The position numbers and the translations under genes were made by a program. The notes under the pieces were generated by a model, which was not told the origin of the DNA, did no database searches, and saw only the letters and a list, made by a program, of their open reading frames with translations. A stretch of 64,000 nt of DNA from a virus (taxonomy: Duplodnaviria > Caudoviricetes), in IMG/VR virus record IMGVR_UViG_3300014205_000180, positions 86,989-150,988 of that record. One strand, written 5' to 3'. Shown piece by piece: positions 33,300 through 49,329 of this stretch (position 1 is its first letter; each line of letters opens with the position of its first letter).

Positions 33300-33353
33300 A
33301 TTCTATATTTACACCAAAATCTGGTGTATCACAATCTAAGGTATTTAAATAAC

Positions 33354-43105: not shown

Positions 43106-43136
43106 GACAAACCCCAGCCATAAGCTGGGGTTTGTT
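43106..43136 (-). terminator. intrinsic terminator
   Basis: ACAAACCCCAGC-CATAA-GCTGGGGTTTGT. Confidence 0.85.
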
Positions 43137-44195: not shown

Positions 44196-44525
44196 TTAAA
44201 ATAACAATTTCTTAATTTTAGACCAGTCAACAGAATGATCATCAGTTAACGGTGTTCCTATATTTCTATCATCAATACAGAAATTGAAAAACGGCTTATT
44301 CTTCTCAACTCTATCATATGGAATATCATATAACTTAAGATAATCTTCCATTTCATGAGTCATTCCAACAGCGTCATCAACACAATCAGGATTTGAACGA
44401 CAAGAATAAATTACTATAGTATGATTACATTCCTTTAATCTTTTTAACACCTCACGACATTCTTTTTGTGGAGGTGAATCACTATTAGGACAAATAGAAC
44501 CATCGAAATCAATAAAGTAAATCAT
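44196..44525 (-). CDS. small HAD-family phosphatase
   Basis: IDFDGSI, IYSCR, KP...IDDR. Confidence 0.85.
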   Translation of the reverse strand: MIYFIDFDGSICPNSDSPPQKECREVLKRLKECNHTIVIYSCRSNPDCVDDAVGMTHEMEDYLKLYDIPYDRVEKNKPFFNFCIDDRNIGTPLTDDHSVDWSKIKKLLF

Positions 44526-44830: not shown

Positions 44831-44836
44831 ATTTTA

Positions 44837-45118
44837 TCAAATACTTTTCTTTTTCTTTGCTAAATCAGCTATTTCATCTAAAGTCATAGTTGCGAAATTC
44901 AACTCTGACTTAATTGGCTGTTTAATTTTAAACGATTTTACTTTTTTAATCTGACCAGCTTTTTTACGCAGCCATGCCATTATTTCTTTATGAACTTTAT
45001 CAGCCAATTCACATTCTTTATCATTGGTTGTATCAACATATCCGCTGCCAAAAGTTGAATCATAGTCTTGCCCCTCAAGACAAGCTGCTGCCATAGCGAA
45101 TAAGTCTTTTTTATTCAT
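44837..45118 (-). CDS. hypothetical protein
   Basis: ATGA coupling to 45115-46512. Confidence 0.6.
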   Translation of the reverse strand: MNKKDLFAMAAACLEGQDYDSTFGSGYVDTTNDKECELADKVHKEIMAWLRKKAGQIKKVKSFKIKQPIKSELNFATMTLDEIADLAKKKKSI

Positions 45119-46512
45119 ATCTTACCACACAACTTATCAACATTATGAGCATAGTCTTCACCTTTAACCCTATATAGTTTCTGTTTTTCAGCAGAAACTA
45201 ATTCTAGTTTATAAGTTGGCGTATATCCATCATATGCAATACCAAAATCAACAATTTCCCATACTGCATTGCCATCACTATATCTTTCACCAATCTTTAA
45301 TTTTCTAACGTATTTGCATAGACATTCACCATATTTCTGTTCATATTCTTTATACGTATCTTTTGATAAAGTCTTGCATGGGCAATTGCCATTGGTCCCA
45401 ACAGCTTTCTTTTTATAATGTTCAACATTAATCATTTCATCAGCATTGTCCTTCATCATTCCATCCATGATCTGTTTATCAAGAGTCCTCTTATAAATCC
45501 ACAGTCTTATATTCTGCAGATATTCAATAATAACCTTATCATCTTCATTATGCACATTCTTAATAAAACGATCCATCAATAAAGCTAGCAATATTTCATT
45601 AGTGAAACCATTAACTCCATGATCCTTTGCTGAACCATTTTGAAATGATAAGTGATGAGCCTTATAGAATGATAAACTAGTTCCACCATTATCAGGATTA
45701 GTAATTGTTACTATCCCTATCAACTCATTTTTGTACCAAAATACCTGGAGCTTCCTATTGCCGCTTATCTCCCAAGTCCCATCAGCTACTTCAAAAATGA
45801 TTTTTTTAGCGTCTTTCCTTTTGCATTCAAAAGGCAACAATATCATATAGTTATTATCATTCCATTGAACTTTAAATGATCTTGAAGATTGATCAGATAA
45901 TGCAAAAACTTCAATGCGCTTGTTAAGTCCATTAATACGATGCCATACTATTTCGCCTGCATAACCGTTATCAGGGAATATCTTCGGCTTATCTTCTATG
46001 CCAAAATCTTTTTTAACAGTCTCCCATTTATTGACTTTACTTAATTGGAAATCCTCAGATGCAACTATGGCTGATTCATTCATCTTGTTGACAGTTTTTA
46101 AATCATTATAAAGAGAGCCTAAAATTTTAATAGATTCAGTTAATTCTTCAACAGTTGGATCACTAACTATATCAATTGTACCATCTTTTTTATCAATTGT
46201 AACAACTCTGCGTCCAGGAGTAAATGGTTTAATAGTAATAAGATAATTTGAATCAATTACTCTACTAATTAATACATATTCAATACTAAAATTTTCACAG
46301 TGTTTATCAAAACCAATTATATTAGAAACATAAATATCAGAAAGTTTAACACCCTTCGAAATTAATTGATCAAAATGATTCTTTAAAATTATCTCAGCAC
46401 AAGGTCCATTTGGAAGGTGATAAATTCTAGATTCTGATGTTGGTTCAGAAGTTACATTAATTTCTTTGTATGGTAATAACTTGCGAATTAATTCAGTAGA
46501 AAGATTAGGCAT
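45115..46512 (-). CDS. multidomain protein containing a divergent Tad1-like domain
   Basis: LSFQNGSAKDHGVNGFTNEILLALLMDRF...LWIYKRTLDK matches the recalled Tad1-family pattern FQxG...GVNGxTxExLLx..xDRL...WxxxRTxDR; start ATG 46512 after GAGGA. Confidence 0.6.
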   Translation of the reverse strand: MPNLSTELIRKLLPYKEINVTSEPTSESRIYHLPNGPCAEIILKNHFDQLISKGVKLSDIYVSNIIGFDKHCENFSIEYVLISRVIDSNYLITIKPFTPGRRVVTIDKKDGTIDIVSDPTVEELTESIKILGSLYNDLKTVNKMNESAIVASEDFQLSKVNKWETVKKDFGIEDKPKIFPDNGYAGEIVWHRINGLNKRIEVFALSDQSSRSFKVQWNDNNYMILLPFECKRKDAKKIIFEVADGTWEISGNRKLQVFWYKNELIGIVTITNPDNGGTSLSFYKAHHLSFQNGSAKDHGVNGFTNEILLALLMDRFIKNVHNEDDKVIIEYLQNIRLWIYKRTLDKQIMDGMMKDNADEMINVEHYKKKAVGTNGNCPCKTLSKDTYKEYEQKYGECLCKYVRKLKIGERYSDGNAVWEIVDFGIAYDGYTPTYKLELVSAEKQKLYRVKGEDYAHNVDKLCGKI

Positions 46513-46610
46513 GGCGTCCTCATGAGACGCCACAGGCGGTTAGGATTTATTTCCCGTCGCTACTCTCCACACTTGGGATTGTAGCTATGCCGACCTGCGG
46601 CTGATGCTCT
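46510..46610 (-). ncRNA. structured 5' leader RNA, candidate riboswitch/translational switch
   Basis: P1 46590-46601 pairs with 46529-46539, enclosing two hairpins; alternative 9-bp stem 46510-46534 covers SD and AUG; GTATTTAAA box at 46614-46622. Confidence 0.6.
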
Positions 46611-46613
46611 AAC

Positions 46614-46622
46614 TTTAAATAC
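46614..46622 (-). promoter_or_regulatory. representative second promoter-like box GTATWTAAA
   Basis: copies at 12383, 22239, 47154, 49226 (minus) and 33341 (plus), mostly 4 nt before an ATG. Confidence 0.6.
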
Positions 46623-46634
46623 ATCGGAGAAAAC

Positions 46635-46796
46635 TTAACAACGCCGCCTATGTTCCCTGTTTAGTCTGCGAACCTCTTCCTTGATTTTTGGTGAATACTC
46701 ACGCAACCGTACCATTACTGCAGCTATTCCAGGATCAGGCTTATCAGCCACCTTTGGCTTTGAAGATTCAGCCAATTCAGTAAGGAAATCAATCAT
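46635..46796 (-). CDS. small hypothetical protein (53 aa, not in the ORF track)
   Basis: MIDFLTELAESSKPKVADKPDPG...HRRRC. Confidence 0.5.
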   Translation of the reverse strand: MIDFLTELAESSKPKVADKPDPGIAAVMVRLREYSPKIKEEVRRLNREHRRRC

Positions 46797-47154: not shown

Positions 47155-49221
47155 TTAAATACTTAGCTTCTTAAACACTAAAATTGGTTCATATGTCTTA
47201 TCTCTACCCATAAACGATGCCGTTTTCATCTCATGTTTATTAATAAGTTTGTATCCAAATTTTTCACCAATTGATTTACATAATTCTTCATGCCTTAACG
47301 GAATATTCAGAACAATTATCCCGCTAAATTTACTAAAAATATTGTTATATATTGGTTCAGTGACAGTATTTTTTGAATCTACCCCATGATATAATTCAGT
47401 TCCATCATATGGCGGAGATGTGAATAATAAATCACCTTGTTTAAAATCAACAGTAGATGAATCTGCTTGAATAAATTCACATTCACACTTTCCTAAACTA
47501 AAATTAATAAATTTCTTTAATTCATTATGAGATTCTATTACATTTTTGTTTAAGTCATATCCAATATATTTAATATTTTTATTCATGCATCCAATAAGTC
47601 TTCCTCCCCAGCCCATACTTGGATCAATAACTGTTCCACCATTAGGAAGATATAATTCATATATTTTGTGAGCTATCCATGGTTTAAATATAGAAACAGT
47701 AGTAAAATCCTTAAATTTCCTATTAATTAATTTCACCAAATTGTGAATATTAACATCTTTATCTTTCTCCCATAAATATTCAACTGCTTTTCTTAATACA
47801 GAAATATTTCCAGGTTCCCACGCTTGAGCAATATAATTATATTTATGATGGGTTGAATAATAAAAATGTTTAGAAAAATTCTTAATCAGTGATAATAACG
47901 GTTCTGCTTCAATATTAGAATTAAACAAATCTTTATCAGATTTTATTATTTCTTCATATCTTGATAAACCTTTTAATAATTTATGTCTTGAGCATTCTGG
48001 ATGAATAAATCCAAACTTTATTAAAAAATCAAAGCATTCATCACTTGTATTAAATAGTAACTTCCAGTTTAAACAATAATATTTATCAATATCTTCAATC
48101 GCAAGATCATAAAATTTACCATTCCAAACTTTAATGTCTCTATTATGTTTTTTAGCCACTAGAATTTGTTTAATTAATCTTGACCTATTTGGTCCAGGGA
48201 CAGTTGATTCTGATTTTGATTTAGCCTCAACTAAAGTATCGCCATTAATCATAAAATCAATGTTAGCACATACTCCAAGATATTTATATATTACAGGATT
48301 CTTTTCTAATGACTTTACATTTTCGTCTTTTGACATGTTTTCAATAAATGCAGTTTCAAGGATACTATCACATTCAATTCTTCCAAATTTTGAATCAATA
48401 ATCTTCTTATGGCCATGACCATCAAGTTTAGCTAACATTTCTTCTTTAGTCCTGAGTTCTATACTATTTCGTTTTAAAAAATATACGACATTTGCAACAT
48501 AAACATTTAATTCATCAGCTATAGAAGAAGCTGATCTATTATTTATGATATATTCATTATATAACCACACTCTATCATTTAATTCATTAATTTTTGAATC
48601 TCTCTTAACGTGTGTGCTTCTAATTTTTATGCCATGTTCCACTAATAATCCATAAATTAATGACATTGAACAATTTTTAATTTCACTAATTTTTTCTATG
48701 GTCAGTTTTTGTACAGAATACAAATCTTCCAATTCAGGTTTTAAAATAATTGGTTTATATTCATTAATATATCTTTTTACATTTAATCTGTCATAGGCAT
48801 CGTACACTGTTTGCTCTTTTACGTCTAAAATTCTTGATATTTCTCTACATGTCAAATTCTTATCAGCAAATTCTTTTAGTTTTACAGGATCGTTAAGATC
48901 AGGTGGCCTTTTTGCATCATTCATGGTTCTAAAAATAATATCCGGATAATTTTTAAGTAACTGCCTTTTTATTCTAGCAATTGGTGCTGAATATTCTTTA
49001 TGAAGAGCATCAAGGCTAATCCCAGATATATATTTATTATAAATATCAATAATAGGCAAAGGTTTCTCAACTGCTTTATTCATATGACCACTAATAATTT
49101 CAAATTTTTTAGCTAATGTTGATATTGTCCCAACATTTTTACCAGTCATCTTAGCAACTTGTGAGTAACTTAAACCTTGATCAGAAATAAGCGATTTAAG
49201 TAGTTCTTGAGTTATTTCCAT
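47155..49221 (-). CDS. multi-HTH + PD-(D/E)XK nuclease + amino (N4-C/N6-A) DNA methyltransferase fusion
   Basis: about five HTH repeats; CDSILE...IDF..LVEAK; VIDPSMGWGGRLIG (motif I) and LFTSPPY (motif IV). Confidence 0.8.
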   Translation of the reverse strand: MEITQELLKSLISDQGLSYSQVAKMTGKNVGTISTLAKKFEIISGHMNKAVEKPLPIIDIYNKYISGISLDALHKEYSAPIARIKRQLLKNYPDIIFRTMNDAKRPPDLNDPVKLKEFADKNLTCREISRILDVKEQTVYDAYDRLNVKRYINEYKPIILKPELEDLYSVQKLTIEKISEIKNCSMSLIYGLLVEHGIKIRSTHVKRDSKINELNDRVWLYNEYIINNRSASSIADELNVYVANVVYFLKRNSIELRTKEEMLAKLDGHGHKKIIDSKFGRIECDSILETAFIENMSKDENVKSLEKNPVIYKYLGVCANIDFMINGDTLVEAKSKSESTVPGPNRSRLIKQILVAKKHNRDIKVWNGKFYDLAIEDIDKYYCLNWKLLFNTSDECFDFLIKFGFIHPECSRHKLLKGLSRYEEIIKSDKDLFNSNIEAEPLLSLIKNFSKHFYYSTHHKYNYIAQAWEPGNISVLRKAVEYLWEKDKDVNIHNLVKLINRKFKDFTTVSIFKPWIAHKIYELYLPNGGTVIDPSMGWGGRLIGCMNKNIKYIGYDLNKNVIESHNELKKFINFSLGKCECEFIQADSSTVDFKQGDLLFTSPPYDGTELYHGVDSKNTVTEPIYNNIFSKFSGIIVLNIPLRHEELCKSIGEKFGYKLINKHEMKTASFMGRDKTYEPILVFKKLSI

Positions 49222-49278: not shown

Positions 49279-49329
49279 TTCTCCCGGTGGGGTTGCCACC
49301 GGGAGAAGTGCGCGAGAAGTGGTTCTCGC
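49279..49329 (-). terminator. tandem hairpins/terminator after the MCP gene
   Basis: GCGAGAA-N4-TTCTCGC then TTCTCCCGGTGG-N5-CCACCGGGAGAA followed by TGTTTT on the minus strand. Confidence 0.85.

Follow-up and report, generated by a model that had tools for sequence, protein, structure and literature searches.

In T4-type phages, the leaders of e, soc and I-TevI are simple hairpins that sequester the Shine–Dalgarno (SD) sequence and are relieved by transcription from an internal late promoter, such that translation depends on which form of the RNA is made. Autogenous operators take other forms, including the T4 gp32 pseudoknot, the gp43 hairpin, the RegA sites (AU-rich and unstructured), and ribosomal-protein leaders. 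Among riboswitches, the purine aptamer has conserved J1/2, J2/3 and J3/1 strands of ~7–8, 8 and 3 nt, respectively, and kissing L2–L3 loops. To our knowledge, no control of the expression of Tad1-type anti-defence sponges is known. Here, we describe a structured leader RNA upstream of a Tad1-like gene in a 64,000-nt stretch (positions 86,989 to 150,988) of the IMG/VR virus record IMGVR_UViG_3300014205_000180, a member of the Caudoviricetes; this whole stretch is referred to below as the window. The parent record (151 kb, estimated to be ~60% complete) encodes a T4-type major head protein, portal and terminase. Minus-strand positions 46510–46622 of the window constitute a non-coding leader comprising a three-way junction (P1, P2 and P3) followed by an SD-bearing hairpin, which ends at the ATG of a gene for a 465-amino-acid (aa) Tad1-like protein. 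Tad1 itself is a small, stand-alone protein that forms hexamers and acts as a sponge for gcADPR and cyclic oligonucleotides (PMC10680739). Based on comparative sequence evidence, we posit, with a probability of about 0.6, that the leader represents a new, uncatalogued family of cis-regulatory leader RNAs that gate initiation on the Tad1-like genes of T4-like phages; the start of translation is the step most likely to be gated. The parts of the leader, in 5′ to 3′ order of the RNA, are as follows.

46614–46622, minus strand: box GTATTTAAA, a promoter-like or initiation-region motif 13 nt 5′ of P1, kept in 6/6 AT-rich relatives
46602–46613, minus strand: conserved single-stranded 5′ tail GUUAGAGCAUCA, 12 nt
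46590–46601, minus strand: P1 5′ strand GCCGCAGG-U-CGG, with the core CGCAGG(U/A)CG the same in 12/12 loci
46586–46589, minus strand: junction strand J1/2, CAUA, unpaired and A/C-rich in every lineage
46559–46585, minus strand: P2, with a GC/GC base, a tandem purine–purine (2×2) internal loop, a CC/GG apex and a CAAGUGU loop
46556–46558, minus strand: junction strand J2/3, GAC
46542–46555, minus strand: P3 hairpin GGGA-AAUAAA-UCCU, a hairpin in all lineages but variable in sequence and length
46529–46541, minus strand: junction strand J3/1, AA, and the P1 3′ strand CCG-CCUGUGGC, the final 3–6 nt of which are common to the SD/AUG hairpin
46510–46534, minus strand: alternative hairpin UGUGGCGUC-UCAUGAG-GACGCCAUG, spanning the SD GAGGA (46517–46521) and the ATG (46510–46512)

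The box, the three helices, the junctions, the SD, the ATG and the alternative hairpin had all been proposed in a first-pass annotation made from the sequence alone, and each was found where that annotation had placed it. The 73-nt segment at 46529–46601 runs in the order GCCGCAGG-U-CGG / CAUA / P2 / GAC / P3 / AA / CCG-CCUGUGGC, and is followed by GUCUCAUGAGGACGCC and then the ATG. P1 is formed by 46590–46601 pairing with 46529–46539 (11 bp and one bulged U), and P2 is 27–28 nt long in the four model-aligned lineages (A–D). The leader is GC-rich (~53%, versus ~30% genome-wide), and the change is local, with GC fractions of 0.49–0.53 in the leader and 0.2–0.35 in the adjoining sequence. The proposed three-way junction is both the minimum-energy and the centroid structure returned by RNAfold. 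Folded alone, the aptamer segment has a predicted energy of −31.7 kcal/mol (z = −4.1), with none of 200 shuffled sequences equally stable, and in its 136-nt context the leader retains a z-score of −3.1.

Conservation among the closest relatives follows this structure. All four (L002, L003, L004 and L005) have a gap of 103–130 nt upstream of the Tad1-like gene, within which the leader is 80–97% identical to that of the window, compared with 48–59% identity for the proteins and mostly ~50–80% for the coding sequence. From box to ATG the mean column identity is 93%; the conserved tract has its limits at the box and the ATG, and the upstream flanks are not alignable. Variable columns are concentrated in unpaired positions (13/43, versus 3/54 in paired positions; Fisher p = 0.0018), and the three paired exceptions are all C/U opposite G and thus wobble-compatible. 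In L002, the 2×2 purine loop of P2 is replaced by U–G and G–U pairs. The junction strands vary within this clade (CAUA/CUUA; GAC/GUC/AAC; AA/AU/AG), with the stems invariant. Initiation at an in-frame GTG at position 46533, which the first-pass annotation had named as a possible refutation, was rejected because this codon is out of frame or absent in the relatives; the ATG preceded by the SD GAGGA is thus the start.

Beyond this clade, a covariance model of the leader was run on the loci of more distant Tad1-like proteins and rebuilt twice. In total, the leader was identified in 12 loci from six lineages, and in every case it ends at the ATG of a Tad1-like open reading frame (ORF). The genomes that carry it range from AT-rich (~30% GC) to 65% GC, and all of those with readable context are T4-like; these include an AT-rich phage with the same gp23 neighbourhood (L036) and a GC-rich phage, complete at 220 kb, that encodes Gp23 (L038). 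Model scores were 80 bits for L036, 69 for L038, 67 for L206, 61 for L037, and 35.5 for L205. The copy in L208 is weak (12 bits) but is backed by a reading of the sequence, and that in L207 was found by eye only; its P1 and P2 match the others, apart from a CCAUG bulge in P1, and its P3 is enlarged. Every genome that could be searched whole has a single copy. The downstream ORFs range from 172 to 465 aa and differ in architecture, with the Tad1-like domain as the only part in common. The leader is not tied to one genomic position: in G001, the leader and its Tad1-like gene are ~100 kb from gp23, beside tRNA genes. Two GC-rich phages have the leader and Tad1-like gene (L037:3147–4640; L038:1978–2864) followed by a same-strand array of 9–15 tRNA genes. 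In a 170-kb relative (L200, L201), the Gp23 major head gene lies in two adjacent pieces (G002:C1:98135–99362) that cover profile positions 1–167 and 164–347, a split that could reflect a frameshift, an intron or an assembly error.

Most Tad1-like genes have no such leader. Among 159 other IMG/VR loci with Tad1-like genes, there was no credible match (E ≤ 1) and none beside the gene; one match at the end of L146 is cut off (E = 7.4). A long-form Tad1-like gene of the P0060 type (L210:626–1728) is without a leader, having only a 32-nt gap to a divergent NUDIX hydrolase gene; L210 comes from the same ENA sample as L002. No match was found by BLAST of the region and leader against GenBank phages, by a protein-pattern search of IMG/VR with the 465-aa protein, or by a strict pattern applied to 185,579 prokaryote genomes and JGI metagenomes. 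Strict two-block DNA patterns applied to IMG/VR, JGI metagenomes and GTDB genomes returned L006, L007 and chance matches only, none confirmed by the model. A loose P1 pattern gave at least 118 matches in IMG/VR, all attributable to chance according to nhmmer (L296 was inspected and rejected), and an AT-rich P1 pattern again recovered L006 and L007 together with false positives, including L337, which was rejected as a long hairpin between convergent genes.

Covariation, computed on nine sequences aligned to the model, supports the helices across lineages. Standard pairs occupy 88.6% of cells, compared with 36–47% when the partners are slid; pairs changed on both sides number nine, against 4.8 ± 1.5 in shuffles (3/500 as high); and the covariation score is 0.230, against 0.135 in shuffles (0/500 as high). 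Compensatory changes include U–A to G–C at the P2 apex, U–A to C–G at the P2 base, and C–G to U–A in outer P1, and the bulged U in P1 of the window is replaced by an A–U, U–A or U–G pair in other lineages. P1 is thus conserved in homologs with compensatory changes, a check that the first-pass annotation had itself proposed. The P1 core CGCAGG(U/A)CG with CG(N)CCUG and the CC/GG apex of P2 are invariant; the GC/GC base of P2 is kept in all lineages but L208, and most sequences have purine–purine mismatches in mid-P2. P3 forms a hairpin in all lineages, with sequences that are unrelated between them. Conserved unpaired bases comprise the A/C-rich J1/2, the C before P3, the A that starts J3/1, and the apical loop of P2.

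No member of Rfam 15 (4227 families) matched the leader, including the purine, c-di-GMP, cGAMP, NAD+, PRPP/ppGpp and ZTP riboswitches and the self-cleaving ribozymes, in covariance-model scans of the window and nine related loci down to thresholds of E ≤ 1 to 10; the earlier statement that the aptamer is of no recognizable class therefore holds in every lineage with respect to ribozymes, small RNAs and riboswitches alike. The leader does have one general attribute of riboswitches, namely a conserved structured domain with covariation in a non-coding leader. It does not resemble a purine-type aptamer, having junction strands of 4, 3 and 2 nt and an L3 that varies freely and has no complementarity to L2. 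A tRNA or tRNA-like element was rejected, with no match by ARAGORN or the Rfam tRNA model. An intrinsic terminator flagged by a scan at 46534–46510 was also rejected, as the CCUAAUCUUU stretch that would serve as its tail lies within the coding sequence and is not shared by L003 or L005. Loop–loop and J1/2–L2 pseudoknots show no consistent complementarity across lineages, and a CsrA-type GGA site occurs in P1 of L036 only. The open papers that were searched describe neither a riboswitch nor a leader RNA for Tad1 genes.

In all lineages, a hairpin lies directly 3′ of P1, with the SD in its 3′ arm or loop and its end at the AUG. In the window clade, L206, L207 and L208, forbidding P1 during folding lets its 3′ strand lengthen this hairpin to cover the SD and/or AUG, with predicted energies of −11 to −15 kcal/mol (−14 to −15 in the window clade); in the window, the alternative hairpin with its two outer G–C pairs reaches −15 kcal/mol once P1 is open. 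In L208, the hairpin is a 7-bp GUGGCCU/AGGCCAC helix that overlaps P1 by 5 nt, and in L003 and L005 the minimum-energy fold combines a shortened P1 with the full hairpin. We propose that the transcript begins a few bases after the GTATTTAAA box (a 5′ end near 46608–46609 is predicted) and that the RNA would fold into a sequence-conserved P1, a P2 with a purine-rich internal loop and conserved apical loop, and a variable P3, with the junction abutting the SD-bearing hairpin that stops at the AUG. Because the P1 3′ strand could instead add to that hairpin and so enclose the SD and start codon, the junction domain would set access to the ribosome-binding site, by strand exchange or stacking, and in this way the amount of sponge protein; an effector binding the junction domain would shift the balance between the two states. 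The first-pass annotation had likened this layout to a translational ON riboswitch, and the resemblance is borne out by the P1 3′ strand being common to the SD/AUG hairpin. Its further claim that the two folds are mutually exclusive applies in part. The folds do compete, although in the window only for GGC, or for UGUGGC if weak outer pairs are counted, which amounts to a branch migration of 3–6 nt; the states differ by the migration of three G–C pairs.

Several points weigh against a regulatory leader of this kind. Comparing the energy of the P1 state with folds that hold the P1 5′ strand unpaired, the P1 fold is favoured in silico without an effector by 4–19 kcal/mol in every lineage, and by ~7 kcal/mol in the window. 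In the window, part of the SD remains paired in a 4-bp remnant of the hairpin even when P1 is fully formed, so exclusivity is not strict and the predicted change in accessibility is modest. In L036, L037 and L205, the SD hairpin barely overlaps P1, and a strand-exchange switch is therefore not universal in the family. The alignments were fitted to the model structure, which biases the pair counts towards that structure, and for this reason we take the covariation as moderate support. Finally, the independent lineages number only six, with L207 and L208 resting partly on reading by eye. Overall, the layout fits a translational switch that is weak in silico and not identical across the family.

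The Tad1-like gene and the gene that overlaps it are as follows.

45115–46512, minus strand: 465-aa gene, with an N-terminal part of no assigned family (~180 residues), a Tad1-like domain (residues ~185–350) and a Cys-rich C-terminal domain
44837–45118, minus strand: 93-aa gene, with an ATGA overlap with the stop codon of the Tad1-like gene

The first-pass annotation had ascribed a Tad1-like domain to the downstream ORF, and on sequence homology this is a true Tad1-like domain: the core (residues 286–349; DNA 45466–45657) matches PDB 8kbb (Thoeris anti-defense 1) by phmmer at E = 3e-5, and a family profile including the relatives matches six distinct PDB Tad1 chain sequences at E = 8e-29 (8kbb) to 6e-17, with 7uav, 8kbe and 8kbg at ~1e-17. 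The conserved core used for Tad1 homology (FQxGxxKxxGxNG..NE..L ... RLW..KRT) likewise places the protein within the family, the profile of which matches 462 library proteins, mostly of Tad1 size (110–135 aa). The 465-aa protein is an atypical Tad1 in having extra N- and C-terminal domains, rather than being small and stand-alone, and is without the RGVEGT end of the long-form relatives; a sponge function may be assigned to it by homology. Its only close relatives among 5.8 billion proteins are the four of the window clade (48–59% identity). An AlphaFold model of the whole protein was not usable (pLDDT 35). The Cys-rich C-terminal domain (CPCKT...GEC.CKY; 45115–45390, residues ~375–465) is kept in the clade and resembles the ferredoxin-thioredoxin reductase beta chain only faintly (E = 0.03); metal binding by this domain is possible.

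Based on the ATGA overlap, the 93-aa gene is probably translationally coupled to the Tad1-like gene; it has no homology to the genes at the same position in the relatives. The first-pass annotation had extended the control of the leader to three closely spaced downstream genes, including a HAD phosphatase. This extension applies only in part, as the gene after the 93-aa gene has its own GTATTTGAT box (44836–44844), and the HAD-like gene (44196–44525; 109 aa, DxDG motif, phrog_1238) is coupled to that boxed gene and not to the Tad1-like gene. In L003, the gene that directly follows the Tad1-like gene shares 68% identity with the HAD-like gene, which is thus a conserved neighbour in the AT-rich clade. 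On the other side, the region separating the Tad1-like gene from the major head gene is occupied by different selfish-looking genes in each relative: a 688-aa HTH/HNH/methylase-like protein in the window (47155–49221), a LAGLIDADG protein in L004 (1173–2897), a 749-aa HTH protein in L036 (647–2896), and two small ORFs in L003 (1655–2871). Directly upstream of the leader in the window is a 53-aa ORF (46635–46796) with a raised GC content (0.43–0.46) unlike its surroundings and with no alignable counterpart in the relatives.

The box at the head of the leader recurs in the window immediately before start codons, as had been noted previously: GTATTTAAA or its near variants GTATATAAA and GTATTTGAT are found 2–6 nt 5′ of the ATG at six other minus-strand starts, and the same class of box precedes the plus-strand start at 33341, with further cases elsewhere in the genome. 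The exact 9-mer GTATTTAAA is mildly enriched (6 observed versus 2.15 expected). In the genome as a whole, GTATTTAA(A/T) and near variants occur 2–6 nt before the ATG of approximately ten other genes, and likewise in the relatives; the Tad1-like gene is the exception, with ~100 nt of structured RNA between box and ATG. A second box, AAATATAAA, has the equivalent position ahead of structural genes such as that for the portal. Box positions in the window are 49234, 47162, 44844, 41472, 33341(+), 22247 and 12391, as well as 58995, 30313, 24337 and 5283, with GTATTTAA(A/T) ahead of accessory genes and AAATATAAA ahead of structural genes. Judged by their placement, the two A/T boxes may mark two promoter classes with near-leaderless mRNAs, and given the structural genes that follow AAATATAAA, the GTATTTAAA class is probably of a different temporal class. 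No terminator was found between the leader and the 465-aa gene, the nearest strong ones being at 49279–49307 (after the head gene) and 43107–43135. In L208, a terminator and then TTGACA are upstream of the RNA, and in L038 the leader sits in a divergent intergenic region.

The trigger may be a small molecule, the sponge protein or a further phage-encoded factor. The P1 core is invariant in sequence, and not just in pairing, across genomes of very different base composition, which suggests sequence-specific recognition or a dual constraint. This would suit a protein-bound translational operator, in which the Tad1-like protein, another T4-type regulator or a nuclease such as RNase III recognizes P1 and the junction, an explanation we consider less likely than not, and about as likely as a small-molecule riboswitch or slightly likelier. 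Such control could be autogenous, possibly relieved once the sponge is loaded with ligand, and could set translation or processing. It would accord with the Tad1-like domain being the sole protein part common to all of the downstream genes (172–465 aa), and with the restriction of the RNA to T4-like phages where context is known. T4 gp32, gp43 and RegA act on autogenous translational operators and sponges act stoichiometrically, which makes dosage control plausible. Nevertheless, RNA-binding activity is not known for Tad1, the helices are short for RNase III, and most Tad1-like genes, including the NUDIX-adjoining long form of L210, have no leader. A true riboswitch is a more doubtful proposition: the junction would bind an immune messenger (gcADPR or a cyclic oligonucleotide, for example) or a metabolite akin to these, for example NAD+ or ADP-ribose, thereby stabilizing P1 and turning translation of the sponge ON. 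The translational-ON architecture, with a P1 3′ strand common to the SD/AUG-sequestering hairpin, would serve this purpose, as would conserved unpaired bases in the junction and loops beside a freely varying P3. Retention of the leader in genomes of 30%–65% GC, the hosts of which probably differ, favours a universal ligand over a host protein, and the leader is found only before Tad1-like genes, whose products bind molecules of this kind (PMC10680739). However, P1 is predicted to be stable without ligand, no Rfam class matches, and the window clade has variable junction strands on invariant stems, whereas most riboswitch classes show the opposite pattern. Moreover, only 12 of ~170 Tad1-like loci carry the leader, all of them T4-like where the context is known, a distribution compatible with simple vertical descent or with a factor specific to the lineage.

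In most lineages a single fold is dominant in silico, and P1 would form before the 3′ arm of the hairpin is transcribed, as might be expected of a constitutive structural leader that shields the mRNA, or sets translation at a fixed level, without switching. The phage otherwise has very short leaders, so a long structured one could alter the stability of the Tad1-like mRNA. We consider this unlikely, as a mere stabilizer would have no need of an invariant P1, conserved loop and junction bases, or an SD hairpin ending at the AUG; furthermore, a 5′ end near 46609 would leave ~8 unpaired nt before P1, and a 5′ tail of that length is poor protection against 5′-end-dependent decay. The turnover of selfish-looking upstream genes (HTH/HNH/methylase in the window, LAGLIDADG in L004, a 749-aa HTH protein in L036) invites the thought that the conserved element acts as DNA, for example as a homing-endonuclease target or co-conversion tract, but this is highly improbable: conservation starts at the box and stops exactly at the ATG, substitutions avoid paired positions, compensatory changes preserve the helices, and the element moves with the Tad1-like gene, as in G001. 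On balance, a cis-regulatory leader that gates initiation on the Tad1-like gene remains our preferred reading. A speculative elaboration, to which we would give low odds, is that the leader is a sensor coupling sponge output to the host immune alarm, such that more sponge would be made when Thoeris or CBASS fires, either because the junction binds gcADPR, cA3 or a cGAMP-type signal, or because the empty Tad1-like protein is bound to the RNA and released when loaded.

Sponges such as Tad1 act stoichiometrically, and therefore their amount and timing decide whether a phage escapes Thoeris or CBASS. A leader that is exclusive to Tad1-like genes and kept from 30% to 65% GC would offer a concrete handle on the control of sponge expression, and constitutes a well-defined orphan riboswitch candidate with a short list of obvious ligands. 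Even as a protein operator or a fixed stabilizer, it would add a new family to RNA databases such as Rfam, and it marks out a subgroup of the Tad1-like genes of T4-like phages. If the sensor proposal were true, this would be the first case of a riboswitch or operator responding to a bacterial immune messenger, and also the first in which an anti-defence gene is controlled at the RNA level.

Of the described systems, the add adenine riboswitch (purine class, RF00167) has the same general layout, with a three-way junction and a P1 3′ strand common to a hairpin that hides the SD and start; in both, the P1 state would favour initiation. The leader differs in having no Rfam match, much shorter junction strands (4, 3 and 2 nt) and no complementary L2–L3 loops, in the invariance of the P1 sequence itself, and in a hairpin overlap of only 3–6 nt in the window. 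With the T4 e, soc and I-TevI leaders it shares a T4-like phage setting and a hairpin in which the SD and start region of a single gene are paired, but the leader has a conserved 73-nt junction domain before the hairpin, and the promoter-like box is upstream of the whole structure. Like the autogenous operators, it is a structured, sequence-conserved leader on a single gene family, and fits dosage control of an abundant binding protein, although it shows no similarity to the gp32, gp43 or RegA operators. It also resembles the orphan riboswitch candidates and phage cis-regulatory motifs of Rfam in its GC-rich, structured sequence set within AT-rich intergenic DNA, its covariation, and the constant gene family downstream; it differs from these in being absent from Rfam 15 and in being tied to an anti-defence sponge gene, a link that has no counterpart in the open papers searched.

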